Positions 61 to 29,253 of a DNA stretch of 64,000 nucleotides are shown here, piece after piece. A program made the translations under genes and the position numbers. The notes under the pieces are model-generated. The model saw only the letters and a list, made by a program, of their open reading frames with translations. It had not been told where the DNA came from and searched no databases. The DNA is from Candidatus Micrarchaeota archaeon (lineage in GTDB: Archaea; Micrarchaeota; Micrarchaeia; Micrarchaeales; CABMGC01), in NCBI GenBank assembly GCA_027319905.1, contig DAHVMJ010000003.1, positions 3,669 to 67,668 on the forward strand, read 5' to 3'. Every line of letters starts with the position of its first letter. Position 1 is the stretch's first letter.

Positions 61-423
61 CTACTTCTTCTCTGCCTCTCCCTCCTTCGCCGCTGGTGCC
101 GCCGCGGTTGCGGTCTGCGGCTTCGCCTCCTTCTTGCCCTTCGCCTTCGGCCTCTCAAGCACGTGCTTCTGCGCCATTCTCATGGCCTCGGCGTCGTAGT
201 ACTCGTGCACGAGTACGCTGCCCTTCCTGCTTCCGTACAGCTGCCCCGCCCTCACGATCACCAGGTTATCCTGCTTCAGGTTTAGCTTGTCGGCGAGGCC
301 CTTCTTGATCTCCTCCCTCGAAGGCGTTCCGCCGTCGAACTCGAGCGCCACACGCAGCTCCCTGCGCCTGAGAAGCTTGTTGTCAAAATCGTTCTCTATG
401 TCTGCCTTGGTTATTGCCATCAT
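61..423 (-). CDS. rps24e: 30S ribosomal protein S24e
   Basis: 120 aa. The core NKLLRRRELRVALEFDGGTPSREEIKKGLADKL...VIVRAGQLYGSRKGSVLVHEYYD fits the S24e family pattern. Lys/Ala-rich tail. 4-nt overlap with the upstream aIF5A gene. Confidence 0.8.
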   Translation of the reverse strand: MMAITKADIENDFDNKLLRRRELRVALEFDGGTPSREEIKKGLADKLNLKQDNLVIVRAGQLYGSRKGSVLVHEYYDAEAMRMAQKHVLERPKAKGKKEAKPQTATAAAPAAKEGEAEKK

Positions 424-830
424 CCTCCACCTACAACTCTTGTTATCGCACGCCTTCCCATCGTCTCCAGCACCTCTACCTCTGCTCCTGCCTTTACCGA
501 CCCGCGCAGTTCCTCGGGCACCACGGACTCAAAGATTTCGTAGTTCTCCAGATCCATAAGCTGTGCGGTATTCTCAGTGATCGAGACCACCTGCGCCCTC
601 TTCTTCTTTATCTCGGGCACCTCCACTTCTCCGTGACCGGAAAGCAGAAGGGTCTTCTTCGAGCCGTCGAAGATGCCTATGGCGGTTATTCTGGACTTCG
701 CCGCACCGTGCTTCCCCGGCGCAGAGGTCTCTATGTCGACTATCCTGCAGGGTATCCCGTCGATTATGATGAAGCTTCCCTTGCCTATCTCCTTCGCGGA
801 CTTAAGGTTGTAGTTCGTGTCCTCTGCCAA
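420..830 (-). CDS. eif5a: Translation initiation factor 5A (aIF5A)
   Basis: 136 aa. Contains the hypusine-site loop ETSAPGKHGAAKSRITAIGIFDG followed by a C-terminal OB-fold-like region, typical of archaeal IF5A. Confidence 0.93.
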   Translation of the reverse strand: MAEDTNYNLKSAKEIGKGSFIIIDGIPCRIVDIETSAPGKHGAAKSRITAIGIFDGSKKTLLLSGHGEVEVPEIKKKRAQVVSITENTAQLMDLENYEIFESVVPEELRGSVKAGAEVEVLETMGRRAITRVVGGG

Positions 831-6733: not shown

Positions 6734-7345
6734 GTGGTGTTCGTAGACATACTGACAAGCCAGCTGTTTGTTCTCGGTTTTGCGGGCCTCGTGATATCCT
6801 ACCTTGTGCTGCGCGGCTACATGTCCTCAAGGCGCGGAACTAGAAACTCCAATGACCTAAAGTCCGGAGTTGCCCCCATCGCGCTGTTAGGCCTTTACAT
6901 GTTCATAAGCGGCATCTGGGGCCAGTTCGCGTGGCCGCTGCCAGGCAGCTACAACATACTCTTCTATGACCTGTACACACTGGCCGGTTTGCTTGTCATC
7001 TCGTTCGCGTGGTCGCTGTACAATGATGGTGATCTCAGGAGCACTGGCGTCTTCGGCCTGCTGCTCGGGCTTGTGACAATTTACTACGGCTACGTGGGCT
7101 ACTCGCTCAACATGACACAGTCTCCGATAGCCCTGCTAGGCCTCTACTTCCTTTTCGGAATCGCAGGAGTTCTCGGCTGTCCTCTGACCCTGCTGCTCAA
7201 CAACATGCGCGCTGGAATAAAAAGCAAGGGCGGAGTGTGGCCCGCGCTGGTTGCCGTGTTCCTTATCGTGCTAGTGCTCGGCAGCCTGCTGTCGATATTC
7301 ATAGCGGGTAGCGCCATACCTGTGCATCTTGCGACGCCGCCCTAG
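6734..7345 (+). CDS. Integral membrane protein, function unknown
   Basis: 203 aa with about six hydrophobic helices across its length. No catalytic motif recognised. Confidence 0.5.
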   Translation: MVFVDILTSQLFVLGFAGLVISYLVLRGYMSSRRGTRNSNDLKSGVAPIALLGLYMFISGIWGQFAWPLPGSYNILFYDLYTLAGLLVISFAWSLYNDGDLRSTGVFGLLLGLVTIYYGYVGYSLNMTQSPIALLGLYFLFGIAGVLGCPLTLLLNNMRAGIKSKGGVWPALVAVFLIVLVLGSLLSIFIAGSAIPVHLATPP

Positions 7346-16314: not shown

Positions 16315-16782
16315 ATGGACAGGCAAGACTGCATATTCTGCAGGATAGTTGCGGGTAGGCTCCCTGCATACAGGATATACGAAGACAGGAGATACGTGGC
16401 AATACTAGACATCTTTCCCAACACAAGAGGGCAGACGCTGGTCCTGCCCAAGAGACACATGGTCAGCCTGTTTTCCGACATAAGCGATGGTGAGCTGTCC
16501 CAGTTCGTGCTTGTCTCAAAAAAAGTTGCAAACCTGCTACGCAGAAAGTTGGGAGTGGCAAGGGTGCACATGGTACTCGAAGGCCTCGGGGCAAATCACC
16601 TGCATGCGAAGCTCTACCCCGCGAACGGGCTGACTTCAAGCAGATTCAGGCAGATTCTCGCTCCCGAAACCGCATACTTCAAAAGATATCCAGGGTACGT
16701 GAGTACCGTTCTGGGACCTCGCGCCAGTGACGCTTCGCTGAGGCGATTGCAAAAGCAGATTACGGGAAGAGTTGGTGCCTGA
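16315..16782 (+). CDS. HIT-family nucleotide hydrolase/transferase
   Basis: 155 aa. CIFCRIVAGRLPAYRIYEDRRYVAILDIFP, and a triad region GANHLHAKLYP (H-x-H-x-K, third His replaced by Lys). Confidence 0.82.
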   Translation: MDRQDCIFCRIVAGRLPAYRIYEDRRYVAILDIFPNTRGQTLVLPKRHMVSLFSDISDGELSQFVLVSKKVANLLRRKLGVARVHMVLEGLGANHLHAKLYPANGLTSSRFRQILAPETAYFKRYPGYVSTVLGPRASDASLRRLQKQITGRVGA

Positions 16783-17099
16783 TGCCCGCGATGCCGAAAA
16801 GATTCAAGCGCGTCATCGAGGATTTTGTCTGCTTCAACTGTGGAACCGAGATCAAGGGCGGCGGATATACGGACCACTGCCCAAACTGCCTCTGGGGCCT
16901 GCACGTGGACAATAATCCTGGTGATAGAGCTTCAAAATGCAAGGGGAGGCTAAAGCCGGTCGGCGCAGCCTACGATGGGTTCGGCTATATGATAGAATAT
17001 GAATGCCTAAAGTGCGGCGCCAAAAAGAGATTCGGAGCCTCTGAAAATGATAACGAGGAGCTGCTGATCTCGCTAGTTGAAAGGTCGGGAGCGGTCTAG
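16782..17099 (+). CDS. RNHCP-domain zinc-ribbon protein
   Basis: 105 aa. CFNCG...TDHCPNCLWGLHVDNNPGDRASKCKG...CLKCG matches the RNHCP domain signature. The ATG shares one base with the HIT stop (TGATG). Confidence 0.7.
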   Translation: MPAMPKRFKRVIEDFVCFNCGTEIKGGGYTDHCPNCLWGLHVDNNPGDRASKCKGRLKPVGAAYDGFGYMIEYECLKCGAKKRFGASENDNEELLISLVERSGAV

Positions 17100-17113: not shown

Positions 17114-17941
17114 TCATCTGTAGTAATCGTCTCCGTCCACTAGCTCTGCTGTCTGGCCCACCACTTTGTACACCTTTCGGTAGCCTATCCTCTTCAGGTT
17201 CTTCACCACCTGGGTGAACGCCTCGCCTCTTCTATGGCTGTCATCGACCACCAGAGCCACCTTGTTGGTGTTGTCCACCAGCGTCTTCAGCTCGAGCGGG
17301 TGAACGAAGAACTCGCGTTCCATCCTGCTTCCGTCCTCGAACGGCGTCTGCCCCTGGTTCGAGAAGCCAATGAGCGCGTAGCCTACGGGGTCCAGCTTCA
17401 TCTGCTTCATCTTCTCTATCACAAGCGGCGTTACCGTAAGTCCGCCGGTCATGTTCGTTATCACTATCGTCTCGCCCTTTGAGAAATACTGGAACGGACT
17501 GTGCATCCTGCAGGTAAACTCGCTTATAGTGTGCGCGTCTGGCGCGGCGAACGACCAGCCTCCGTTCGACGCATGCATGACGAACTGCTCTCCTCCCGCC
17601 TTGAGGCCTATCTCCACCTGCCTTCTCAGTATGCGCAGGCTTTCCGCGCACTCCTCAAGGCTGTTGTTCATGAACGCGCCAGCCCACAGCCTTCTGACCT
17701 TCCACTCTCCGAACATGTGGTCTTTATAGTCGAGGTCCCTGGCCAGTTTCATGAAGTCTTCAAGGTAGCGCTGATGCTGATACACGCTGAGAATCTTGGT
17801 CTTGTACACGTCCGGAACTCTAAAGCCAAATCTCTGGTTGAGTCTCGGGTCCCCTAGAACGTCTGCCTTGTCGTTTTTCTGCTCAGCTATCTTGGTCGCC
17901 GTCCTAGCGTCCTCATTGCTGTATTCCCTTACTATGTTCAT
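17114..17941 (-). CDS. Helical-domain + PRTase-like protein, operon gene 6 of 6 (degenerate PRPP loop)
   Basis: 275 aa. Motifs: FGFRVPDVY, RRLWAGAFMNNSLEECAESLRILRRQ, IVITNMTGGLTVTP, GYALIGFSNQGQTPFEDGS and VALVVDDSHRRGEAFTQV (PRTase-like hhhhDD, but [ST]G-x-[ST] is replaced by RG-E-A). ATGA overlap with gene 5. Confidence 0.75.
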   Translation of the reverse strand: MNIVREYSNEDARTATKIAEQKNDKADVLGDPRLNQRFGFRVPDVYKTKILSVYQHQRYLEDFMKLARDLDYKDHMFGEWKVRRLWAGAFMNNSLEECAESLRILRRQVEIGLKAGGEQFVMHASNGGWSFAAPDAHTISEFTCRMHSPFQYFSKGETIVITNMTGGLTVTPLVIEKMKQMKLDPVGYALIGFSNQGQTPFEDGSRMEREFFVHPLELKTLVDNTNKVALVVDDSHRRGEAFTQVVKNLKRIGYRKVYKVVGQTAELVDGDDYYR

Positions 17942-18825
17942 CTCCAGTACCTGTCTCCGTCTACCAGGTCCGCCGTCTCTCCGACGACCTTGTATACCTT
18001 CTTGTAGCCTATCATCTTCAGGTTTCGCACCACCTGGGTGAACGCCTCGCCCTTCCTGTGGCTGTCGTCAATGACCAGCGCAATCTTGTCCTTGTTCTCC
18101 ACCAGCGTCTTCAGCTCCTTGGGGTGCACGAAGAACTCACGCTCCATCGGGCTGCCATCCTCAAACTGCGTCTGCCCCTGGTTGGAAAATCCAATGAGCG
18201 CGTAGCCTACTGGATCCTTCCCAAGCTCCTTCATCTTTTCCAGCACCAACGGTGTTACCGGAAGACCTCCCGTCATGTTCACTATCGCCATAGTCTGTCC
18301 TTTTTCAAACGACCTGAATGGACCATCGAAGTTGCATGTGAACTCGTTGATTGTGTCGTCGCTTGGTGCAGCGAACGACCATCCGTACCTTGTCGCATGC
18401 TGTAGGAACTTCTCGCCTCCCATTGTCACTCCTCTCTCTATCTGCCTTTTCAGTATATTGAGGCACTCCACGCACTCCTCCAGGCTGTTGTTCATGTACA
18501 CTCCGGCCCACAGCCTTCTCACCTTGTATTCTGTGAACACCCTGTTTTCCGCATCGGCATTCCTCGCAAACTTCATGAAGCTCTTCAGGTACGGCTGCTC
18601 CTGGTATTCGCTTCGTATCGGATAGTAGTAGATGGCTGGCGTCCTGAATCCAAACTTCTGGTTAAGCGCCGGGTCGCCAAGGGGCAGGTCTTTCAGTTCC
18701 AGCGTATCCTCTGCCTTTTCCTGGTCCTCCTGCCTGTTCCTCCTGAGCTCTACCATGCGTGCCAGAGCCTTGGCGTCATTTCCTATGGTGTTTAGTACTC
18801 CCATATCCCTCTCCTCATTCTGCAA
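17938..18825 (-). CDS. Helical-domain + PRTase-like protein, operon gene 5 of 6 (degenerate PRPP loop)
   Basis: 295 aa. Closest paralog of gene 6: FGFRTPAIY, RRLWAGVYMNNSLEECVECLNILKRQ, MAIVNMTGGLPVTP, IALVIDDSHRKGEAFTQV. Confidence 0.75.
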   Translation of the reverse strand: MQNEERDMGVLNTIGNDAKALARMVELRRNRQEDQEKAEDTLELKDLPLGDPALNQKFGFRTPAIYYYPIRSEYQEQPYLKSFMKFARNADAENRVFTEYKVRRLWAGVYMNNSLEECVECLNILKRQIERGVTMGGEKFLQHATRYGWSFAAPSDDTINEFTCNFDGPFRSFEKGQTMAIVNMTGGLPVTPLVLEKMKELGKDPVGYALIGFSNQGQTQFEDGSPMEREFFVHPKELKTLVENKDKIALVIDDSHRKGEAFTQVVRNLKMIGYKKVYKVVGETADLVDGDRYWR

Positions 18826-19738
18826 TCACGTTCTTCTTGCGCGCTACCGCGCCCAGTTCCACCAGGCCCGGCGCATACGCGTTGGGCGATGCCGCCTCCT
18901 CTGCAGTGGTCTCCACTTCTTTCCTAGTCACTTTTACAAGCGGTATGATCGATGTCGCGTCAAGTTTCTGCTGCGCAATCTCGGCCGGTTTCTCAGCACC
19001 TCCTGCTACCGTGGCGCTCGTCTCCTCGTGCTTGGTCTCCGTCACTGTCACCGCCACAGCCGTCTTTCTTTTTCCGTCGAATTCGTCCCTCAGCTCCTTG
19101 ACCAGCTCCCTTGGGCTCTTGGAATAGATTATTGTGGATCCCTTGAGTATCTTCTTCAGGCGGTGGGCCTCGAGCTTTCTTACCTGGTCGGCGAGGCCTC
19201 CGGTTCTTTCAAGCACTCCTATCTTCTTGCCCTCCTTCACCGCAACCGCGAACTCGACCAGTGTGCCTTCCGCGCCTCCTATCACTATCGCCGCATCTGC
19301 TCCGGCAACCAGGGGCACGCTCCTGCCCGTGTCTCCCAAGCCCGTATACGTTATGTGGTCGTAAATCTCGTCCTTTTCAAGACCCCTGCCCAGTTTGGCT
19401 TTTTTGTTCTTCGGTACCATTACCATGACTTCGTCTTCCTCATCCTCACGAATTCCGTCCATGCCCCAGGCTTCGTAGCCGCCATAATACGCGTACGTCA
19501 CGTAGCTGTGAGCTTCCGAGTCGCCAGAAACCCCGTAAACCCTGCCTCCGTGCCTCCTCGCCCCTATCGCGACCTCTTCCGGAAGCCCGCTTCCTGCTCC
19601 GGTGACCACGTCGAACTTCTGTTCGGCGAGGGCTCTCCCGAGCTGGTGGGCCATCGCCTTTGCTCGCTTCGGGTAGTCGTATGTCTTGCCCCCTCCGATT
19701 ACCGCGATAGTCTTTCTCTTGTGCATCTTCTCAACCAT
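18815..19738 (-). CDS. LOG/SLOG-family Rossmann protein (lysine-decarboxylase-like nucleotide N-glycosidase family), operon gene 4 of 6
   Basis: 307 aa. Motifs: TIAVIGGGKT, FDVVTGAGSGLPEEVAIGARRHGGRVYGV and ADAAIVIGGAEGTLVEF (GGxxGTxxE). Has an internal acidic insert and a C-terminal low-complexity extension of about 110 aa. Confidence 0.75.
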   Translation of the reverse strand: MVEKMHKRKTIAVIGGGKTYDYPKRAKAMAHQLGRALAEQKFDVVTGAGSGLPEEVAIGARRHGGRVYGVSGDSEAHSYVTYAYYGGYEAWGMDGIREDEEDEVMVMVPKNKKAKLGRGLEKDEIYDHITYTGLGDTGRSVPLVAGADAAIVIGGAEGTLVEFAVAVKEGKKIGVLERTGGLADQVRKLEAHRLKKILKGSTIIYSKSPRELVKELRDEFDGKRKTAVAVTVTETKHEETSATVAGGAEKPAEIAQQKLDATSIIPLVKVTRKEVETTAEEAASPNAYAPGLVELGAVARKKNVIAE

Positions 19739-21281
19739 TCGTTGTCACTTTTGATTTTTCCTCAGTCCTTTTCCTTGCAGCTGTCTTGAGCGAAAGCCAT
19801 CCGACCAGCTCCTTCGGTTCGTTGGAGTAGAACACCTCGGTCTTCGCGTCCCTGGCCGCGGAGACAAACGCCTTTGTTCTTTTAATATCAACCCCGCTGC
19901 CCAGAAGGACTCCTATCGCCTTCTTCTGAGCCAGCGCGACGACAAGCTCCCTCTGTGTCATGAATTCGTTCCATCCTACCAGAGCGACTACGTCCACGCT
20001 GCTAACCAAATCGGAAGGCCATTGGAACACCCAGCCGTCCTTTTCCCGGTCAAAGCTGCTGTAGGCTATTTTTTTGTAAGCGGTTATCAGTTCCTGCGGT
20101 ATTTGACCTACGCCGAACACAGGGCCATCAGCCAGCACAGCATACACTCCAGCCCCGTTCTTTTTCGCTGTCTCTCCAACGTAGTCTGTAAGGTCCGGTT
20201 CCGGCTTGGTTCTTGAATAAACATCGAAACCGCTCTCTGCAAGCGTCTTCCCAAGTACTGTTGCTGCCATTCTTGCGGCGTGGCCTTGCTTTTTCCCAAA
20301 CAGGTGTGACTTGCCCATGAGCGAGGGGTCACCTCCTCCGATAATGCCAACCTTTTTCTTGTCGTCGCCCTTGTTTTTCGGTGCTGTATCAAGAAACGCA
20401 GGCGCCGGATGGTATGCTGTTTCGTACATGCCTGGAGACCACATCCCGTAACCCTCGTCGTTCATGTCTCTATACGCGTAGAACGCGGTGTGGCCGTTAA
20501 GACTCTTGCCGTCCTTGTCCAGGAGGTTGCCGTCATGCGTCGCTATCTTGAATATCTTAGTGTAGCCTATCTTTTCCAGGCCCGCTCTGATCATGTCGTA
20601 TGTCTTTCCAGTTATCTCGCTGTCGTCCACAACCAAGGCCGTCTTCTCCTTGAACTGTTGCAGCACCCCGAGCTCTGCCGGGTGGATGAAGAGTTCGTCG
20701 CGCATCGACGTCCCGTCCTCGAATCGGGTCTCTCCATTCTTTGACGCGCCGATCAGTACATAGCCGAGAGGCATGCCGCCAAGTTCCTTAAGCAGATCCA
20801 TCACCAGCGGTGTCGTTGGAATAGAACCCACGAGATTTGAGAGCACTATCACTTCCTCGTTTGCGAATCTAAGCAGCGGGCTTTTCGTCTTGCTTTCCAT
20901 GCTCTCTATATCGGATTTTAAGGGACCCATGAAAGCCCACGAACTCTTGTTCGTGACCTCGAAATACTTTCGGCCTCCCATCTGCAGGCCTTTGTCTAAC
21001 TGTTCCCTCAGTATACGCAGCGATTCCGCGCACTCCTCAAAGGTGTTGTGCGCAAACGTGCCGGCCCACAGTCTGCGTATGTCGTGCTCCAGCAATACTT
21101 CTCCCTTTGCGCTCTTTGCCGCCATCTCCTCGGTAAATTTGGATAGGTCATCTTTCCTGGTTATGTATTCTTTCGGTTCGACAAGTCCGAACGCGTTCCT
21201 GAACGGAAAGACCGCAGTCTCCTTCGGGTGCCACGCCCAATTGCCATTCTTGTATCCATCTATCTTTCTCAACTGAAGCAC
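19731..21281 (-). CDS. Fusion protein: helical domain + PRTase-like core + degenerate LOG/SLOG-like domain, operon gene 3 of 6
   Basis: 516 aa, GTG start. N-terminal part: RRLWAGTFAHNTFEECAESLRILREQ, IVLSNLVGSIPTTP and TALVVDDSEITGKTYDMI (canonical PRPP loop). C-terminal part: KVGIIGGGD... and VDVVALVGWNEFMTQRE, where the LOG motifs are only partly retained. Confidence 0.75.
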   Translation of the reverse strand: MLQLRKIDGYKNGNWAWHPKETAVFPFRNAFGLVEPKEYITRKDDLSKFTEEMAAKSAKGEVLLEHDIRRLWAGTFAHNTFEECAESLRILREQLDKGLQMGGRKYFEVTNKSSWAFMGPLKSDIESMESKTKSPLLRFANEEVIVLSNLVGSIPTTPLVMDLLKELGGMPLGYVLIGASKNGETRFEDGTSMRDELFIHPAELGVLQQFKEKTALVVDDSEITGKTYDMIRAGLEKIGYTKIFKIATHDGNLLDKDGKSLNGHTAFYAYRDMNDEGYGMWSPGMYETAYHPAPAFLDTAPKNKGDDKKKVGIIGGGDPSLMGKSHLFGKKQGHAARMAATVLGKTLAESGFDVYSRTKPEPDLTDYVGETAKKNGAGVYAVLADGPVFGVGQIPQELITAYKKIAYSSFDREKDGWVFQWPSDLVSSVDVVALVGWNEFMTQRELVVALAQKKAIGVLLGSGVDIKRTKAFVSAARDAKTEVFYSNEPKELVGWLSLKTAARKRTEEKSKVTTNG

Positions 21282-22153
21282 CTCTTCCCGTTACTGTCAA
21301 GGAAAACGCTGTCAACTGTAGCGACCTTGTATATCTTCTCAAATCCGATCTTCTTCAGTCCCTTTCTCATCCCAGCATAGGTCGTGCCGCCGCATTCAGT
21401 ATCATCTACCACAAGGGCGGTCTTCTTCTTGTTCCTGGCGAGCGTCTCAAGTTCCCTGGGTGGAACGAAGAACTCGCCTATCATGAGATCTCCATCCGCG
21501 AACCTCGTCTCCCCATGTTTTGAGTACCCTGCCAATACGTATGCGAATGGCTCTCTCCCAAGCTTCTGCATCAGCCCGATCAGAGGCGGCACACACTCGA
21601 ATCCGCCCACCATGTTCGCAACCACTACCGTTTCCTTTCTTTCGAAGTTTAACAGCGGGCTGCTCTGCTCGTCCTCTAGGTCTAACGCGAAGCCTTGAGG
21701 CATGCATTTCCAGCAGTCGTTTGTAAGACGCACCAGAGCGTCTCCTCCCTCGTACCTCTTCAGGCGCATGTCAACCACCTGCCTCAGTACGCTTAGAGAC
21801 TCGGCGCAGGCCACAAGGCTGTTGTTCCTGAACGACCCCGCCCAGAGACCGCGGATTCTGTCTTCATCGGCAGCAAGCCCGTCATTGATCGAAGCCTTAG
21901 CATACGATACCATGTCCGCGAGAGCCTCTCTTTTAAAACTGTAGGCGATTGGCTTCGGGAAGCCCAGTTCTGCAGTCAGCCTGAAGCCGAGGCCCTTCTT
22001 CTCCATGGCCTCTGAGCTCCCGCGAGCGTTTGGCAGTCTGGCCGTGTCCGCATCCGCGCCCCTCGTCGCTCGAGAAACCCCGCGCAATCTAGTTGTAGTA
22101 TCCAAATACACACCTCCCGTTTCCGTCAAGTACCGTGCTGTCCCCTGTAGCAA
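21269..22153 (-). CDS. Helical-domain + PRTase-like protein, operon gene 2 of 6
   Basis: 294 aa as called. Motifs: IRGLWAGSFRNNSLVACAESLSVLRQ, VVVANMVGGFECVP and TALVVDDTECGGTTYAGM. The first 49 codons read through a duplicated gene-1 3' segment in another frame, so the ATG at 22004-22006 (MEKKGLGFRL...) is the more likely start. Confidence 0.7.
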   Translation of the reverse strand: MLQGTARYLTETGGVYLDTTTRLRGVSRATRGADADTARLPNARGSSEAMEKKGLGFRLTAELGFPKPIAYSFKREALADMVSYAKASINDGLAADEDRIRGLWAGSFRNNSLVACAESLSVLRQVVDMRLKRYEGGDALVRLTNDCWKCMPQGFALDLEDEQSSPLLNFERKETVVVANMVGGFECVPPLIGLMQKLGREPFAYVLAGYSKHGETRFADGDLMIGEFFVPPRELETLARNKKKTALVVDDTECGGTTYAGMRKGLKKIGFEKIYKVATVDSVFLDSNGKRCFS

Positions 22154-23106
22154 AATATACAGCTCCCGTTTCCGTCAAGTACCATGCTGTCCCTCGTCGC
22201 AATCTTGTAAATGTTCTTGAACCCGATCTTGCGCAGTCCCTCTCTCATTCCACTGTAAGACCTGCCGCTGCATTCCGTGTCATCTACCACAATCACGGTT
22301 TTGTCCCTGTTCCTAACAAGCATCTCCAGCTCCCTCGCAGGCACGAAGAACTCATTAACCATTCTTTCTCCATCAGCAAATTCAGTTTCCCCATTGACCG
22401 AATAGCCAGCCAATGCGTACCCTGCCGGTTCCCTGTCAAGTTTCGTAAGCAGCTCGATCAGCTGGGCTGTGGTGTACAGACCTCCGGTCATGTTTGGCAC
22501 CACAATTGTCTCGTGCTTCTGGAAGCGCATCAGCGGGTTCTTGTTATTCGAGGTGCTCTCCAGGGCGGCCTCAACGAACCATCTCTGCATGCCTGCGCGC
22601 AAGCAGCTCGACTTGAGTGCTGCCACAGAGCAGTCGCTGAGTTCTCCAAGCCTGATCTCAAGATCGTTTTTCAGCAGTTGGAGGGCTTCTGTGCACTTTG
22701 GCTGCTGCCGGTCTGGATAGTCTTCTGGATCTACATCCTGATGCTGGGCGCGGTTAAGGAGCTCTCGAGCAGGGTGCTTGACAAGCTGGGGTTCGAGGGC
22801 CACGATAACATAAAGGGCCTGCTTGAGTTGGGCGCGGTGCTGCTCGCGTACGCGGTGCTCTCGATAGTGATACTGCTCTTCTTCCTGTTTATAGGCCCGA
22901 GCATCGGGATCTGAGACCTGGTTACCTTCAGATCGCCAAGCTTCAGCCGTATCTTTCTTCTGATTCAGACCGCACGCGAGGCGAGCGAAGCGAGCACTGT
23001 GTAGCCGTAGCTGGCTAGTGTCTGCAGCCTCTAGCCAGCCAAACCCAAAAACAATAAACATCAGCAACAGCAGCATCAACATCATCTGCATTTGCAGCTT
23101 GAGCAT
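22126..23106 (-). CDS. Divergent PRTase-like protein, operon gene 1 of 6 (start uncertain)
   Basis: 326 aa as called. The C-terminal 150 aa is clearly paralogous: TIVVPNMTGGLYTT, GYALAGYSVNGETEFADG, TVIVVDDTECSGRSYSGM. The RRLWAG motif is absent, leaving only PKCTEALQLLKNDLEIRL. The N-terminus is hydrophobic and low-complexity (MMLMLLLLMFIVFGFGW). The C-terminus is frameshifted by a 49-bp tandem duplication. Confidence 0.6.
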   Translation of the reverse strand: MLKLQMQMMLMLLLLMFIVFGFGWLEAADTSQLRLHSARFARLACGLNQKKDTAEAWRSEGNQVSDPDARAYKQEEEQYHYREHRVREQHRAQLKQALYVIVALEPQLVKHPARELLNRAQHQDVDPEDYPDRQQPKCTEALQLLKNDLEIRLGELSDCSVAALKSSCLRAGMQRWFVEAALESTSNNKNPLMRFQKHETIVVPNMTGGLYTTAQLIELLTKLDREPAGYALAGYSVNGETEFADGERMVNEFFVPARELEMLVRNRDKTVIVVDDTECSGRSYSGMREGLRKIGFKNIYKIATRDSMVLDGNGSCIFCYRGQHGT

Positions 23107-23291: not shown

Positions 23292-23329
23292 AAAAAGGAG
23301 GCGCTCATCGGAAGCGCCGCCTCCTTTTG
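23292..23329 (-). terminator. Hairpin plus T-run, candidate terminator after the alpha/beta hydrolase gene
   Basis: aaaaggagg (23293-23301) pairs with cctcctttt (23320-23328), with extra inner GC pairs. It starts 5 nt past the stop at 23334. On the minus strand the 3' arm ends in TTTTT. Confidence 0.4.
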
Positions 23330-23333
23330 AAAT

Positions 23334-23975
23334 TTAAGCCGCACCTTCCAGTTCCTTTAAAACAATTGAAATGACCTTCTCCTCGTTTGCATCTCTATTG
23401 CCTATGCCGGAAACCGGCTTGAAAGAGTGGTCCGCATTATCTATTGTGTATAGCTTGCATTTCGGCAGACGCTCCTTCAGAATGCTTACGTCGCAGTAAG
23501 GATCCTCGCTGCCCTTTATTATCACAAACGAGGGCTTCATATCTTTGACGCCGTTCAGGTCGAAGACGCTCGAAGGCTTTCCTTCTTCGTGCAGCGAATA
23601 ACCAAGCGCTACAACTTTTGGTATGCTGTATCTGCCTCTGGCTGCCTCTAGGGAGGATATGTAGCCCCCGAAGGACTTGCCTACCAGAGCCGTCTTCTTG
23701 CTTCCGAGGAAGCCGATGGCGGCCTCCATCTCCCCCACGCTTCGCTCGGCATCCATGTCTTCTGGTTTACCGGCAAAAGAAAAGTTGAACCTCAGGACAT
23801 CGTAATCATTGCTAAGCCTGGCGAAGAGTTTCTCCACTATGCTCGTGTGCATATCGTTGTACATGCCGTGGGAAAGAACTACCCCAAGTCCGTGTCCTCT
23901 TTTGGAGTATTCCACCTCCACTTTGCGACCGTCCACTTCAATAGTTTCATGACCATTTTCAGCCAATTCGCTCAC
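23334..23975 (-). CDS. Alpha/beta-fold hydrolase
   Basis: 213 aa. Nucleophile elbow LVGKSFGG (GxSxG), preceded by VVLSHGMYNDM, with a C-terminal DNADHSF (catalytic His region). Confidence 0.75.
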   Translation of the reverse strand: MSELAENGHETIEVDGRKVEVEYSKRGHGLGVVLSHGMYNDMHTSIVEKLFARLSNDYDVLRFNFSFAGKPEDMDAERSVGEMEAAIGFLGSKKTALVGKSFGGYISSLEAARGRYSIPKVVALGYSLHEEGKPSSVFDLNGVKDMKPSFVIIKGSEDPYCDVSILKERLPKCKLYTIDNADHSFKPVSGIGNRDANEEKVISIVLKELEGAA

Positions 23976-25996: not shown

Positions 25997-26068
25997 AGCC
26001 CCAGGAGGGGATTGAACCCTCGACTTCGAGTTTACGAAACTCGCACTCTACCACTGAGTTACTGGGGC
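25997..26068 (-). tRNA. tRNA-Thr (anticodon CGU)
   Basis: The complement reads GCCCCAG-TA-ACTC-AGTGGTA-GAGT-G-CGAGT-TTCGTAA-ACTCG-AAGTC-GAGGG-TTCAATC-CCCTC-CTGGGGC-T. This is a full cloverleaf with a 7-bp acceptor stem. CCA is not encoded and there is no intron. Confidence 0.9.
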
Positions 26069-26124
26069 GCGCTATCTATAAAAACATAGGAGCAAATAAA
26101 TACTTGCTCTCAATAGCGATTCTC

Positions 26125-29100
26125 ATGGACGACTCCGAGAACGAGGATGAGGAACCAAAGGAAGTTTCCCAGCCTCCCGAAGAAATGGCCACACTCGAAG
26201 CCGAAAATGAGGAAACGCAGCCAGCCCAGCAAGAAACCCCCCCTCCTGCACCACCACCCGGACCCGAAGAGGCGCCAGAAGAGGCCCCGCAGCAGCCCGC
26301 ACAGCAGGCCGCGCAGCCGGCGCCGGAGCAGGCTCCACAACCAGCTTCCCAGCCTACGCCCGCTCCCGAACAGCCTCCCCCGAAGAAGCCGCTCTTCGGC
26401 CAGGGCATGCCGATGTCCCTGCCGAACATCAAGATCCCACAACCAAGGATACTGCTGTCAATAATAGCGATAGTCATAATCGCAGCGCTGATACTCACGT
26501 TTACCCCAAGTGTCACCACGACCACGACTACCTCCACGACCACGGTGCAGCAGGTGAATCTTTCCAGGATAAGCGCGTGCGAGCAGATAAGCAAGCCGGG
26601 CACCTACTACCTAGAGGGCAGCATAAACGACACCTCCACTAGCGGCGCCTGCATAAGCGTCGCGTCGAGCAACGTCCGCATCGTGGGCAACCTGTACACC
26701 ATAGCGGGCAGCGGTCCCTACAGCGGTCTGCCCCCGTACTCGTACGGCATAGAGGTGCGGAACGTATCTAATGTGACCGTCACAACCTTCAGGGTGCTCA
26801 AATTCTCCTACGACCTGTTCGTCAGCAACTCCAAGAACGTCAACATAGTTAGCAACAACCTCACCACCTCGACGCTTTCAGCCATGTACCTGCTCAACGT
26901 CTCGAACAGCACGGTGCACGAGAACTCCGTCTCGGACTCGCAGAGCAAGCAGGGAGGCATCTTTCTCGTGAGCGGAAGCGGCAACAGTTTCTTCAACAAC
27001 TCCGTAGCGAACAACGCCTACTACGGCATAGTGGTCAACTCTACTGACAACAACTTCACACGCAACACCTTCGGAGGCAATGCCGCCGACATAGCCTGCA
27101 ACCTCACCTCCGCCGCCCGCTTCTCAAACAACTTCAGCAATTCAAAGTGCGCGATCAACGATTATTGCGCATTCGCCTCGTGCAGCACCAACGTCCCCTT
27201 CAACATCTCCGCGGTAAAGCTCGCCCCTGGGCCGGTCAGCACGTGCGGCTCGATATACTCTCCGGGCAACTACGTGCTCTCCCAGAGCATAAGCGCATCC
27301 GCGTATCTCAACCTCTCGAATCCGCTATCCCAGAGCATCCCCTGCATCAAGATACTCGCCCCCAACGTAAATTTCGACTGCAACAACCATGCGATTAACA
27401 ACTCCGGCTACGGGATATACGTGGGCGCGACGTCAAATGTTAACGTGTCGAGGTGCGCACTTTCAAAGGACAGCTACGGCATTTTCGTGACAGGCGCGTT
27501 CAACCCGCAGATAAGGAATACCAGTGCGCAGGCCGGCACCTATGGGGTCTACATAAGCAACACCACGGGCGGAAGGCTCTCCAACGTAACGCTCGCCAAG
27601 AACAATACCTACGGTCTGTTCGTGGACTCCACAAGCGGCCTTCTCCTTGACAGCGTGAGGGCGCAGAGCAACGTGTACGGCGTCTATATCAACAGCGGCG
27701 AGAACGACGTTTTCAACGGCGGCGTTACGAGAAACAACACAAAGGCGGACATCTACTGCAGCCCCGGTACATACAACTCCACCACAGACCTGGCGCAGAG
27801 CGTCTCCTGCGGCGTCACGGACTGCAACTGGGCGTCCGCATCGTGCGCCCAGACCGTGCAGCCCAAGCTTTCCGTGTATCCGATCAACAGCTGCAGGACG
27901 ATAACCAACCCGGGTAACTACACGCTTACCCAGAACACGCTCTCCTCAGGCACGTGCTTCGACATACAGTCAAACAACGTCGCATTCAGCTGCGCATCGC
28001 ACCTGATAGTGGGGCCGTCTCCAAAGAGCGCCTTCTACATAGCTAGCAGGCGCAACGTAAGCATATCCAACTGCATCATGAGCGGGTTCGGTTCTACCGT
28101 CAACGTGACCAACTCCTCGCAGATAGACCTCAACGACCTCACGATCAACGACACGAAGAGCGGCGTCGTCTTCTCTAAAGTGTCGAACAGCAGCGTCACC
28201 AACCTTAAGGTCACACTCCAGTCATCATTCGCCTACAACTTCACCGGCGTGAACACAAGCCTGGTGTCGCACGACATCGCCTTCGGAGGACTGGGACAGG
28301 GGAGCGGTTTCCTGTTCTCCAACTCTGGAAAGAACACTGTCTCGTTCAACAACGCCACCTCGAATCCACTGCTTGGCTTCAGCTTTGTCAACTCGCGGGA
28401 CAACACAGTCTACAACAACAGCGCGTTCTCGAACAGGAATTTCGACTACTCTTGCTCCGGCTCCTCCACCGGCCTGTACTCCAACCCCATCTCCATCAAC
28501 TCCGGCCTGGCGAAGAACCAGTGCGGCTGGATGGTGGTCGTGAATCCCCTGGCGCCAAGTTCCTCCGCGTGCTTGGCGCTGTTCTCTCCGTCCCAGGTGG
28601 TACTCGGCAGCGACATGCTCTACGCCGCGGGCAGCACGTGCATCAGCGCATATGTAACCAACACGGTGTCGGCCAACACGACAACGATAGACTGCGCCGG
28701 CCACACAGTATACGCCTCTCACGGGGGCACCTTTGCCTACATCAGCGGCGCCGCGGGAGTAAAGGTGTACAACTGCATACTTCTCAACTTCACCACCGGC
28801 GTGCGGAGCACCGGGGCGGGCACTCTCGTGTACAACAACACCTTCAACGGCGGGGGTACGGCCGTGCTCTTCAACTCCACCAACTCAGGCAGCGTGTACA
28901 AGAACATGGTCTACAACATAAGCAACGGCCTGCTCTTCTACAACTCCATAAGCCCCAACGTGCACAACAACGTGCTGTTCAACAGCACAGTCGGCATAGG
29001 CCTCTATGGCGGCTCTTCGGCAACGGTAGCCAACAACACCGCGACCAGGAGCGGCACCGGCCTGCTCCTCAGCAACAGCACGGGGGCCAGCGTGCAGAAC

Positions 29101-29253
29101 AACACCTTCGTCAACTCAAGTCAGGGTTCGATAGTGTGCAGCGGCACAGCCACGAACTCCACCAGCAGGAACATAGACGACGGCGGAAACACATGCCAGA
29201 ATCCGAGCTCAACGTGCACGTGGATAAGCCTCTCGAGCTCATGCAGGGCCTAG
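26125..29253 (+). CDS. Large membrane-anchored surface protein with right-handed parallel beta-helix (PbH1/NosD-like) repeats
   Basis: About 1,040 aa from ATG 26125 (the track starts at TTG 26104). It has an acidic then Pro/Gln/Ala-rich N-terminus, one TM helix (ILLSIIAIVIIAALILTF), a Thr-rich linker, then dozens of N-x-x-N...GI...S.N repeat units. I count more than 40 N-x-S/T sequons by eye. Confidence 0.85.
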   Translation: MDDSENEDEEPKEVSQPPEEMATLEAENEETQPAQQETPPPAPPPGPEEAPEEAPQQPAQQAAQPAPEQAPQPASQPTPAPEQPPPKKPLFGQGMPMSLPNIKIPQPRILLSIIAIVIIAALILTFTPSVTTTTTTSTTTVQQVNLSRISACEQISKPGTYYLEGSINDTSTSGACISVASSNVRIVGNLYTIAGSGPYSGLPPYSYGIEVRNVSNVTVTTFRVLKFSYDLFVSNSKNVNIVSNNLTTSTLSAMYLLNVSNSTVHENSVSDSQSKQGGIFLVSGSGNSFFNNSVANNAYYGIVVNSTDNNFTRNTFGGNAADIACNLTSAARFSNNFSNSKCAINDYCAFASCSTNVPFNISAVKLAPGPVSTCGSIYSPGNYVLSQSISASAYLNLSNPLSQSIPCIKILAPNVNFDCNNHAINNSGYGIYVGATSNVNVSRCALSKDSYGIFVTGAFNPQIRNTSAQAGTYGVYISNTTGGRLSNVTLAKNNTYGLFVDSTSGLLLDSVRAQSNVYGVYINSGENDVFNGGVTRNNTKADIYCSPGTYNSTTDLAQSVSCGVTDCNWASASCAQTVQPKLSVYPINSCRTITNPGNYTLTQNTLSSGTCFDIQSNNVAFSCASHLIVGPSPKSAFYIASRRNVSISNCIMSGFGSTVNVTNSSQIDLNDLTINDTKSGVVFSKVSNSSVTNLKVTLQSSFAYNFTGVNTSLVSHDIAFGGLGQGSGFLFSNSGKNTVSFNNATSNPLLGFSFVNSRDNTVYNNSAFSNRNFDYSCSGSSTGLYSNPISINSGLAKNQCGWMVVVNPLAPSSSACLALFSPSQVVLGSDMLYAAGSTCISAYVTNTVSANTTTIDCAGHTVYASHGGTFAYISGAAGVKVYNCILLNFTTGVRSTGAGTLVYNNTFNGGGTAVLFNSTNSGSVYKNMVYNISNGLLFYNSISPNVHNNVLFNSTVGIGLYGGSSATVANNTATRSGTGLLLSNSTGASVQNNTFVNSSQGSIVCSGTATNSTSRNIDDGGNTCQNPSSTCTWISLSSSCRA

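Follow-up and report, generated by a model that had tools for sequence, protein, structure and literature searches.

A tandem array of phosphoribosyltransferase-like paralogs and SLOG cluster 4 domains in an archaeal operon-like locus

What would bring several divergent phosphoribosyltransferase (PRTase)-like paralogs together with SLOG-superfamily domains in a single run of genes? The question is raised by six consecutive minus-strand genes, named G1 to G6 in order of transcription, at positions 17114-23106 of a 64,000-nucleotide (nt) stretch of the archaeal contig DAHVMJ010000003.1 (hereafter the window, meaning the whole stretch of DNA that was analysed). We found that the locus is best explained as a two-gene unit that has expanded in tandem in one lineage, with an SLOG cluster 4 gene followed by a PRTase gene of a rare archaeal family. 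As to its role, we lean, while granting it somewhat less than an even chance, towards an accessory module, acting as a hetero-oligomer, in which a ribotide would be made and broken down so as to control a nucleobase or modified-base pool, and which is not a standard salvage enzyme.

With the longest open reading frames (ORFs), the six genes overlap at 17938-17941, 18815-18825, 19731-19738, 21269-21281 and 22126-22153, as the first-pass annotation of this DNA had described; the gene calls of near-identical public contigs use slightly later starts for G2, G3 and G5 and give junctions of +20, -4, -8, +10 and -4 nt. Under either set of starts, G1-G6 form one tightly packed, co-directional, operon-like unit. 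Its features are listed below, with lengths in amino acids (aa); PRPP is phosphoribosyl pyrophosphate and HMM is hidden Markov model.

22126-23106, minus strand: G1 ORF, made up of the two parts that follow
22126-22702, minus strand: homologous part of G1 (ORF residues 136-326), with the end of the helical N-domain (PKCTEALQLL), NMTGG, GYSVNGETEFADG and VVDDTECSGRSY
22703-23106, minus strand: unrelated 5' extension of G1, upstream of the breakpoint and outside the family
21269-22153, minus strand: G2, PRTase-like paralog, likely true start 22006 (245 aa)
~21644-22006 and ~21272-21643, minus strand: helical N-domain and PRTase core of G2, the latter with the canonical PRPP loop VVDDTECGGTTY
19731-21281, minus strand: G3, made up of the two parts that follow
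20466-21281, minus strand: N-terminal two thirds of G3, helical N-domain and PRTase core, with RRLWAGT, NLVGS, GASKNGETRFEDG and VVDDSEITGKTY
19731-20366, minus strand: C-terminal fusion of G3, a degenerate SLOG cluster 4 domain by alignment and an HMM of free SLOGs
18815-19738, minus strand: G4, free-standing SLOG cluster 4 protein, domain at ~19031-19732 with an internal insert, low-complexity tail at ~18818-19030
17938-18825, minus strand: G5, PRTase-like paralog with the non-canonical PRPP loop VIDDSHRKGEAF
17114-17941, minus strand: G6, PRTase-like paralog and last gene of the operon, with the non-canonical PRPP loop VVDDSHRRGEAF
22098-22146 and 22147-22195: copies of a 49-nt tandem duplication (86% identity, repeat search) spanning the G1/G2 junction

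Are the five paralogs PRTases? The first-pass annotation had read all of them as an N-terminal region joined to a type I PRTase-like core. This architecture was found in four paralogs, each with a helical N-domain of ~120 aa and a core of ~125 aa, but in G1 the homology runs from residue 136 onward only. The quoted motifs were present as RRLWAG/RGLWAG, NM[TV]GG, G[YFA]S-x2-G-[EQ]-T-x-F-x-DG and hhhVDD-x3/4-G. The core assignment was borne out at the level of the family, the individual products having diverged. Specifically, single proteins of the window matched PF00156 with E values of 0.006-0.05 for G1-G3 (G1, 0.0057; G3, 0.031; 13.4-16.4 bits), and G5 and G6 gave no individual match to it in the Pfam scan. 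A profile of the five paralogs, searched against 1.84 billion representative proteins at E<=1e-3, matched 49 proteins, 48 of them real family representatives and one (P0040) a repeat-protein false positive. Sixteen of 24 aligned family members matched PF00156, the best with an E value of 2.3e-9; since the window proteins stay below threshold, the link to PF00156 holds at family level only. A local family HMM recognised the N-terminal two thirds of G3 at 2e-62 and G5 at 4e-68.

Compared with the PDB, the 48-sequence family profile matched the Legionella 6-oxopurine PRTase (5esw/5esx, 3.4e-8) and then PRPP synthetases and PurF, with the pyrophosphate (PPi) loop aligned as well. An AlphaFold2 model of G2 (245 aa; predicted local distance difference test, pLDDT, 88.6; predicted template-modelling score, pTM, 0.89) begins with six to seven helices (residues 1-120), the remainder being a beta/alpha core, and Foldseek matched it to the hypoxanthine-guanine PRTase HGPRT (5esx_B, E 5.1e-3, prob 1.00) and to PurF (1ecf_A, E 6.1e-3, prob 0.99) over ~125-133 columns. 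In NCBIfam, no paralog matched a curated salvage PRTase family, the only matches being fragments of PRPP synthetase at E>0.1; full-length placement in Apt, Hpt, Upp or PyrE, the alternative that had been set against the earlier reading, was not found there.

Near-invariant across the family are the Arg and Trp of R-x-x-W, a Gly of the PPi loop, F-x-DG, and an Asp and a Gly of the PRPP loop, the consensus of which is VDDxxxTGxT. By the pattern of four hydrophobic residues, two acidic residues and then x3-4-[TS]-G-x-[TS], we scored the PRPP loops of G1 (DDTECSGRS; VVDDTECSGRSY), G2 (DDTECGGTT; VVDDTECGGTTY) and G3 (DDSEITGKT; VVDDSEITGKTY) as canonical and those of G5 and G6 (DDSHR[KR]GEA(F)), in which [RK]-G-E-A replaces T-G-x-T, as non-canonical. 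Because of these two loops, not all five paralogs are likely to be catalysts, and the locus mixes probable catalysts with probable pseudo-enzymes.

As the first-pass annotation had stated, the N-terminal domain could not be assigned to any family. Modelled alone (pLDDT 81.8), it had no PDB match better than E 1.5 in a Foldseek search, and among the representatives matched it never occurred apart from the PRTase core, save in P0002, the window's own truncated fragment. The domain may represent an enlarged, family-specific hood, and the near-invariant Arg/Trp, PPi-loop, F-x-DG and PRPP-loop residues look more like those of a conserved active site than of a rapidly evolving sensor. Neither a helix-turn-helix (HTH) nor a DNA- or RNA-binding fold was found in it by the Pfam scan or by the Foldseek search of the N-domain model. 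On contig L015, a 163-aa ORF without a Pfam match (161-652, plus strand), just upstream of the family member P0012, begins with EVGFSEPIAFS, which resembles the h-G-F-x-x-P-x-x-Y motif found at the very N-terminal end of the paralogs in the window.

The interleaved domains had been annotated as two LOG-type Rossmann domains. Their interleaving, the fusion of one of them and their membership of the SLOG superfamily all stand, but by profile they fall in SLOG cluster 4 (PF18306), related to TIGR00725, rather than in LOG proper, so that the label was overstated. G4 matched PF18306 with an E value of 1.5e-25 (90 bits; gathering threshold 26.3), and the free SLOGs of a sister assembly (L001) and of a contig from a second lineage (L009), both described below, scored 88 and 88.3 bits, again above the gathering threshold. 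Scores against other models were lower: G4 reached 57.3 bits with TIGR00725 (NCBIfam cutoff 106.9) and 13.5 bits with the LOG equivalog CtkRMPhLog (cutoff 300), and PF03641 gave no or sub-threshold matches in the window and 18-23 bits for the L001 and L009 copies (cutoff 27). In the alignment, G4 keeps TGAGSGLP, GRS and GGAEGTLVE, and the free copies share the Gly-rich loop TGAGSGLP, GR[SN] and GGxxGTxxE, the last two of which align with the catalytic Arg and Glu motifs of LOG. The nearest solved structures to the L001 SLOG were TM1055 (1rcu, 3.4e-11) and the molybdenum cofactor (Moco) carrier protein (2iz5, 4.8e-4), with LOG enzymes at ~4e-3; given that the nearest relatives are TM1055 and a ligand-binding carrier, N-glycosidase activity of the SLOG domains can only be suggested.

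The C-terminal domain of G3 scored 43 bits (E 2e-15) with an HMM of free SLOGs built without G3, and 14.2 bits (E=0.034) with Pfam LDcluster4 (PF18306). Its G-rich loop, Arg segment and GGxGT are gone, and only the Glu and a C-terminal YS..P.EL are retained; judging from profile and alignment, it is a real SLOG relative that has strongly degenerated. Relative to SLOG cluster 4/TIGR00725-like proteins in general, G4 differs in its internal insert and 70-aa low-complexity tail, and the G3 copy in being fused and degenerate.

How did the array arise? The five PRTase-like products are true paralogs, far beyond chance (BLASTP, 3e-57 to 4e-132; 31-64% identity), with 64% identity between G5 and G6, 48-49% between G1 and G2, and 31-41% for all other pairs. 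A neighbour-joining tree placed them in one clade, ((G5,G6),G3),(G1,G2), to which a small metagenomic protein group (P0006-P0012) is sister. Synonymous sites were saturated even in the closest pair, G5/G6 (synonymous divergence, dS, ~1.2; ratio of nonsynonymous to synonymous divergence, dN/dS, 0.22), and dN/dS among the paralogs was 0.2-0.5, indicating that the duplicates are old and have been maintained by purifying selection. The gene order, sister assemblies included, is SLOG-P-P-P::SLOG'-SLOG-P-P (P, PRTase-like gene; ::, fusion; SLOG', degenerate copy), which looks like the outcome of repeated duplication of an SLOG-PRTase(-PRTase) unit.

The same DNA is present in three other assemblies, L001 (ENA ERZ27237364), L002 (GCA_021823435.1) and L003 (Logan SRR13206618), and the first and last of these show that the window does not hold the whole locus. 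L001 and L003, the matching stretches of which begin at window positions 7114 and 15225, respectively, are 99.96-99.98% identical to the window up to 22702 and wholly divergent beyond. The breakpoint, 22702/22703, corresponds to 2413/2414 in L001 and 156/157 in L003, and identity starts at CCAAAGTGCACAGAAGCC. In both assemblies the G1 homologue is intact, with 288 aa including LGFSEPRAY and IRELWAGSFRNNSLPKCTEALQLL; residues 136-326 of the window G1 ORF are 100% identical to residues 98-288 of the intact L001 gene, and its first 135 aa (22703-23106) are unrelated sequence without FGF..Y and RRLWAG. Upstream of G1, L001 carries a third SLOG cluster 4 gene (221 aa; PF18306, 6e-25) and two divergently transcribed PRTase-like genes, one of 236 aa (L001 581-1291, minus strand) and one of at least 191 aa that ends at the contig edge (L001 2-574, minus strand). 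These two genes matched the family profile (hhalign probability 99.5%) and fall in another subfamily, marked by R-x-x-W-x-x-x-F-D-P. Their products share 54% identity and group with P0039, P0041 and P0049, and their PRPP loops are non-canonical, with DW and DVD in place of DD. The complete locus thus comprises at least nine genes, of which seven encode PRTase-like proteins, and it holds three SLOG domains.

The window represents either a deletion allele or a chimeric contig join at 22702. A deletion from inside G1 into a downstream plus-strand gene would yield exactly the observed join. Read on the plus strand, 22703-22914 gives a hydrophobic stretch of ~70 aa (74 aa), closed by a stop codon and with a weak DUF3566 match only; its sequence resembles a membrane-protein C-terminus that has been left orphaned, consistent with a deletion having removed the 5' part of that gene. 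Other assemblies also end within the locus (L002 starts in G5, and P0002 ends in G5), and breaks of this kind are to be expected from paralogous repeats. The 49-nt tandem duplication at the G1/G2 junction is not a multiple of three and has therefore altered the C-terminus of G1 (…CYRGQHGT) and produced an apparent N-terminal extension of the G2 ORF.

Is the association of the two gene types conserved elsewhere? In part: a minimal SLOG-PRTase pair was found in a second, distant lineage, so that the lack of any conservation, the other alternative set against the earlier reading, was not borne out, but the full six-gene form was seen in the same population only (contigs 99.8-99.98% identical). 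On contigs L009/L010, an SLOG cluster 4 gene (190 aa; PF18306, 5e-25) lies 22 nt upstream of P0007, its product being 38% identical to G4 and P0007 29% identical to G5. Together with the fusion in G3, this adjacency shows that the SLOG-PRTase linkage has been selected. Two complete AbiEi/AbiEii pairs (L009 5126-6411 and 11028-12427) flank the L009 pair, and genes for a type II methyltransferase and a DDE transposase are found no more than 10 kb away; the neighbourhood further includes a nucleoside 2-deoxyribosyltransferase, a CYTH gene and an isochorismatase.

At all other informative family contexts, a local HMM scan found no SLOG gene. For example, P0009 and P0010 (41% identical) occupy the same slot, between VIT1 and aIF5A/S24e/S27ae, in two genomes; P0008 and L005 adjoin HMG-CoA reductase; and members of subfamily B lie near a PurF-like gene, a dCMP deaminase-kinase, a YfbR-like HD phosphohydrolase, SurE and NUDIX genes, or near Fic and lipoate genes. 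The solitary relatives look cellular or metabolic, whereas both SLOG-linked loci look accessory: the L009 pair lies in an island rich in toxin-antitoxin and defence genes, and the window locus differs between strains or assemblies. No relatives were found in phages or plasmids (both by tblastn), nor in viral contigs or PHROGs. Word-index protein searches returned almost only self matches, P0018 and P0051 being the only non-self family members among them, and scans of genome and metagenome contigs for the RRLWAG pattern yielded one 1.5-kb contig, L005, besides two bacterial false positives (L004 and L006). A 219-aa neighbour on L007 and a 285-aa neighbour on L016 were checked as possible paralogs and excluded. 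The latter gene (L016 9125-9982, plus strand), located 18 nt upstream of P0010, matches S-adenosylmethionine (SAM) hydroxide adenosyltransferase in its C-terminal domain, below threshold (E 1.4e-4); if this match is real, it would be a nucleoside-forming enzyme beside a solitary family member.

How might the parts work? PRTases and LOGs are obligate oligomers. In the ribotide module that we tentatively favour, G1-G3, with canonical PPi, flexible and PRPP loops, would use PRPP to phosphoribosylate a nucleobase-like acceptor, held under the family-specific helical N-terminal 'hood' with the near-invariant Arg and Trp of R-x-L-W-A-G. The free SLOGs (G4, and one more upstream in the sister assemblies) would bind the resulting N-ribotide or hydrolyse it to base and ribose-5-phosphate, G5, G6 and the degenerate SLOG fused to G3 may be non-catalytic or regulatory subunits, and all of these would act together as a hetero-oligomer. 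Several points weigh against this scheme. Every PRTase-like protein of the window scores under the PF00156 gathering threshold (26.3 bits); no characterised enzyme activity in SLOG cluster 4 was found in the literature searched, and the solved SLOG relative, Moco carrier protein, only binds its ligand; catalysis, acceptor and complex are all predicted, as is the physiological role. A PRTase needs PRPP and a LOG-type enzyme yields ribose-5-phosphate, so that there would be no closed exchange cycle without a PRPP synthetase, and a plain PRTase and LOG acting on one base would run a futile, PRPP-draining cycle, which weakens a metabolic reading and is toxin-like. In addition, the locus shows strain-level structural variation at 22702, the only other SLOG-linked context is the L009 pair between AbiEi/AbiEii genes, and extreme rarity and patchiness fit accessory or conflict genes as well. 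Context evidence for the role is split between metabolism and conflict.

A nucleotide-centred conflict module of the toxin-antidote or abortive-infection kind, an archaeal analogue of ShosTA, is the main rival, possible but in our view doubtful. A PRTase paralog would exhaust PRPP or produce a toxic ribotide, which its SLOG partner would sense or hydrolyse as an antidote, and the paralog array would diversify triggers or specificities. ShosTA does pair a PRPP-dependent PRTase toxin with an SLOG-superfamily (DprA-like) antitoxin (PMC11961720, PMC12961424), and the defence-gene, methyltransferase and transposase neighbours of the L009 pair, the absence of the 5' part of the locus from one strain or assembly, and the very rare and patchy distribution of the family would all suit such a module. 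The weak PADLOC matches that point the same way (G1 to ShosT, 0.002; G4 to PsyrA, 4e-5, and to ShosA, 0.0035) cover, however, no more than generic features, the PRPP loop or the N-terminus of SLOG, and the architecture of ShosT (424 aa, N-terminal pyrophosphatase-like Rossmann domain) differs. Moreover, most family members are solitary and at conserved housekeeping positions, substrate-site residues are conserved under purifying selection with no diversification seen, no mobile-element, phage or plasmid relatives were found, and the PRTase::SLOG fusion points to cooperation rather than antagonism. We regard as unlikely an immune or toxin-antidote system of archaea that works through PRPP chemistry, in which a hetero-oligomeric array of active and pseudo-PRTases makes a non-canonical ribotide or drains PRPP on a trigger and LOG-like SLOGs read or destroy that molecule, with the logic of ShosTA or Thoeris and the 'hood' as a new sensor.

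A pathway to a specialised ribosylated compound (metabolite, cofactor or signal), in which a PRTase attaches phosphoribose to a non-nucleobase acceptor, the paralogs serve successive or alternative substrates and the SLOG protein carries or trims the intermediate, would account for the unique, conserved hood without a structural relative, for the cofactor carrier (Moco carrier protein) among the SLOG relatives, and for old paralogs that differ in PRPP loops and hoods. We consider it improbable, as neither the operon nor its flanks hold tailoring enzymes (methylases, oxidoreductases, ligases, transporters) and no biosynthetic cluster surrounds the solitary relatives. That the products are mostly non-catalytic sensors of PRPP or nucleotides, regulators like PyrR, PurR and GfcR with the N-domain as output or interaction module, is suggested by the degenerate PRPP loops of G5, G6 and the two divergent L001 paralogs and by the degenerate SLOG of G3; yet no HTH or DNA- or RNA-binding fold showed up in the N-domain with Pfam or Foldseek, and all three catalytic loops are kept by G1-G3 and most of the wider family, which makes this quite improbable. 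Ordinary purine or pyrimidine salvage by Apt, Hpt/Gpt, Upp or PyrE enzymes beside a housekeeping LOG is very improbable and largely refuted by the missing NCBIfam match and the rarity of the family, with only ~48 representatives in 1.84 billion proteins. Although the NCBI pipeline names two products (G2 and G3) 'phosphoribosyltransferase', and nothing more specific, and the nearest solved relatives are 6-oxopurine PRTases, the similarity stops at the PRTase core, the N-domain (120 aa) is unique, and the catalytic Asp that HGPRT has before the T-G of the PRPP loop is absent by sequence comparison. The ribotide module outlined above is the reading that we continue to favour, tentatively.

The surroundings of the operon are those of a core chromosome, with genes for ValRS, IleRS, SufBCD, GatE, LonB, topoisomerase, DNA ligase and aIF5B in the window. 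The salvage-dependent or DPANN host proposed earlier found no support: the matching record is annotated as a Nitrososphaerota metagenome-assembled genome, and the operon lies in this core region. Upstream, a hairpin followed by a T-run (23300-23318), 3' of an alpha/beta-hydrolase gene (23334-23975; Abhydrolase_11, 5e-17), sets that gene apart from the operon. Downstream, genes for an HIT-family nucleotide hydrolase and an RNHCP zinc-ribbon protein (16315-17099, plus strand) converge on the operon and end 15 nt from the G6 stop codon, an arrangement kept in L001-L003. Two antisense ORFs, one of 385 aa over G3-G5 (18632-19789, plus strand) and one of 259 aa over G1 (22135-22914, plus strand), are probably non-coding by-products of the strong compositional strand skew here (GC skew -0.22, AT skew -0.29). 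Further upstream, a tRNA-Thr(CGU) gene (25997-26068) adjoins a gene for a 1049-aa, probable surface protein (26104-29253, plus strand), whose N-terminus is of low complexity and rich in Pro, Glu and Gln and which has several NosD/right-handed beta-helix repeats.

The statement of the first-pass annotation that no described system has this organisation agrees with our searches, in which none was matched in Pfam, NCBIfam, PADLOC, PHROGs or the literature searched; specifically, NCBIfam, PADLOC and PHROGs gave nothing at threshold for the PRTase-like paralogs, and no description of such a system was found in the literature on PF18306, TIGR00725 or SLOG and PRTase systems. The parts come from known superfamilies, type I PRTases and SLOG, but the PRTase family with its N-domain, the coupling to SLOG cluster 4 and the paralog array are undescribed. 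In its anatomy the locus is well established and out of the ordinary; it comes from an uncultured organism, and its multi-gene form from one population only. It defines a PRTase family that is very rare and has a new N-terminal domain, ties this family by fusion and conserved adjacency to SLOG cluster 4, a family of no known function, and offers a natural archaeal example of arrays of enzyme and pseudo-enzyme paralogs. As small soluble proteins, the PRTase paralogs and the SLOGs lend themselves to direct testing in vitro. A metabolic role, if true, would mean a new phosphoribosyl acceptor or base-recycling route in Nitrososphaerota (the organism as annotated); a conflict module, if true, would carry the PRPP-based toxin logic of ShosTA over to archaea and supply a ligand for SLOG cluster 4.

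Compared with type I PRTases (5esw/5esx, 1vdm, 1ecf), the paralogs have the common five-stranded Rossmann-like core, a PPi loop (NM[TV]GG, comparable to LKGG), a flexible loop after strand 2 and a similar PRPP loop, hhhVDDxxx[TSG]GxT, and the layout between flexible loop and PRPP loop is like that of HGPRT. They differ in the replacement of the usual hood by the 120-aa all-helical N-domain with R-x-L-W-A-G. On the SLOG side, Moco carrier protein (2iz5), a distant relative, is a small SLOG/LOG-fold binder of a phosphorylated heterocyclic ligand without turnover, but the present locus has no molybdenum-cofactor gene context. In Thoeris ThsA and the retron PRTase effectors, conflict systems in which SLOG serves as nucleotide-ligand sensor and PRTase as effector domain, similar parts are used. 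However, the match of G4 to STALD/ThsA is confined to its first 60 residues (2-60, 40.6 bits, overlapped by the stronger LDcluster4 match), and the locus has neither an SIR2, TIR or Macro effector nor a ThsB/TIR gene; nor does it have the reverse transcriptase and msr/msd of a retron, the Rfam scan of the window having yielded tRNA only.

ShosTA comes closest. ShosT (424 aa) has an N-terminal pyrophosphatase-like hydrolase domain and a C-terminal PRTase (PMC11961720), and ShosA is DprA-like and binds ssDNA and RecA (PMC11961720, PMC12961424). The architectures of both proteins differ from those seen here, the modelled N-domain (AlphaFold2) being helical and not Rossmann, and the PADLOC matches cover 36 residues of G1 for ShosT (E=0.002) and 28 of G4 for ShosA (E=0.0035). 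Common to both is a PRTase protein in which PRPP binding matters, paired genetically with an SLOG-superfamily protein, direct binding of ShosT and ShosA not being known; distinctive of the present locus are a LOG-like cluster 4 SLOG as partner, the helical N-domain, five to seven PRTase paralogs and one fusion. ShosTA is the nearest system by its logic, and the locus stands beside it rather than as a member of it.

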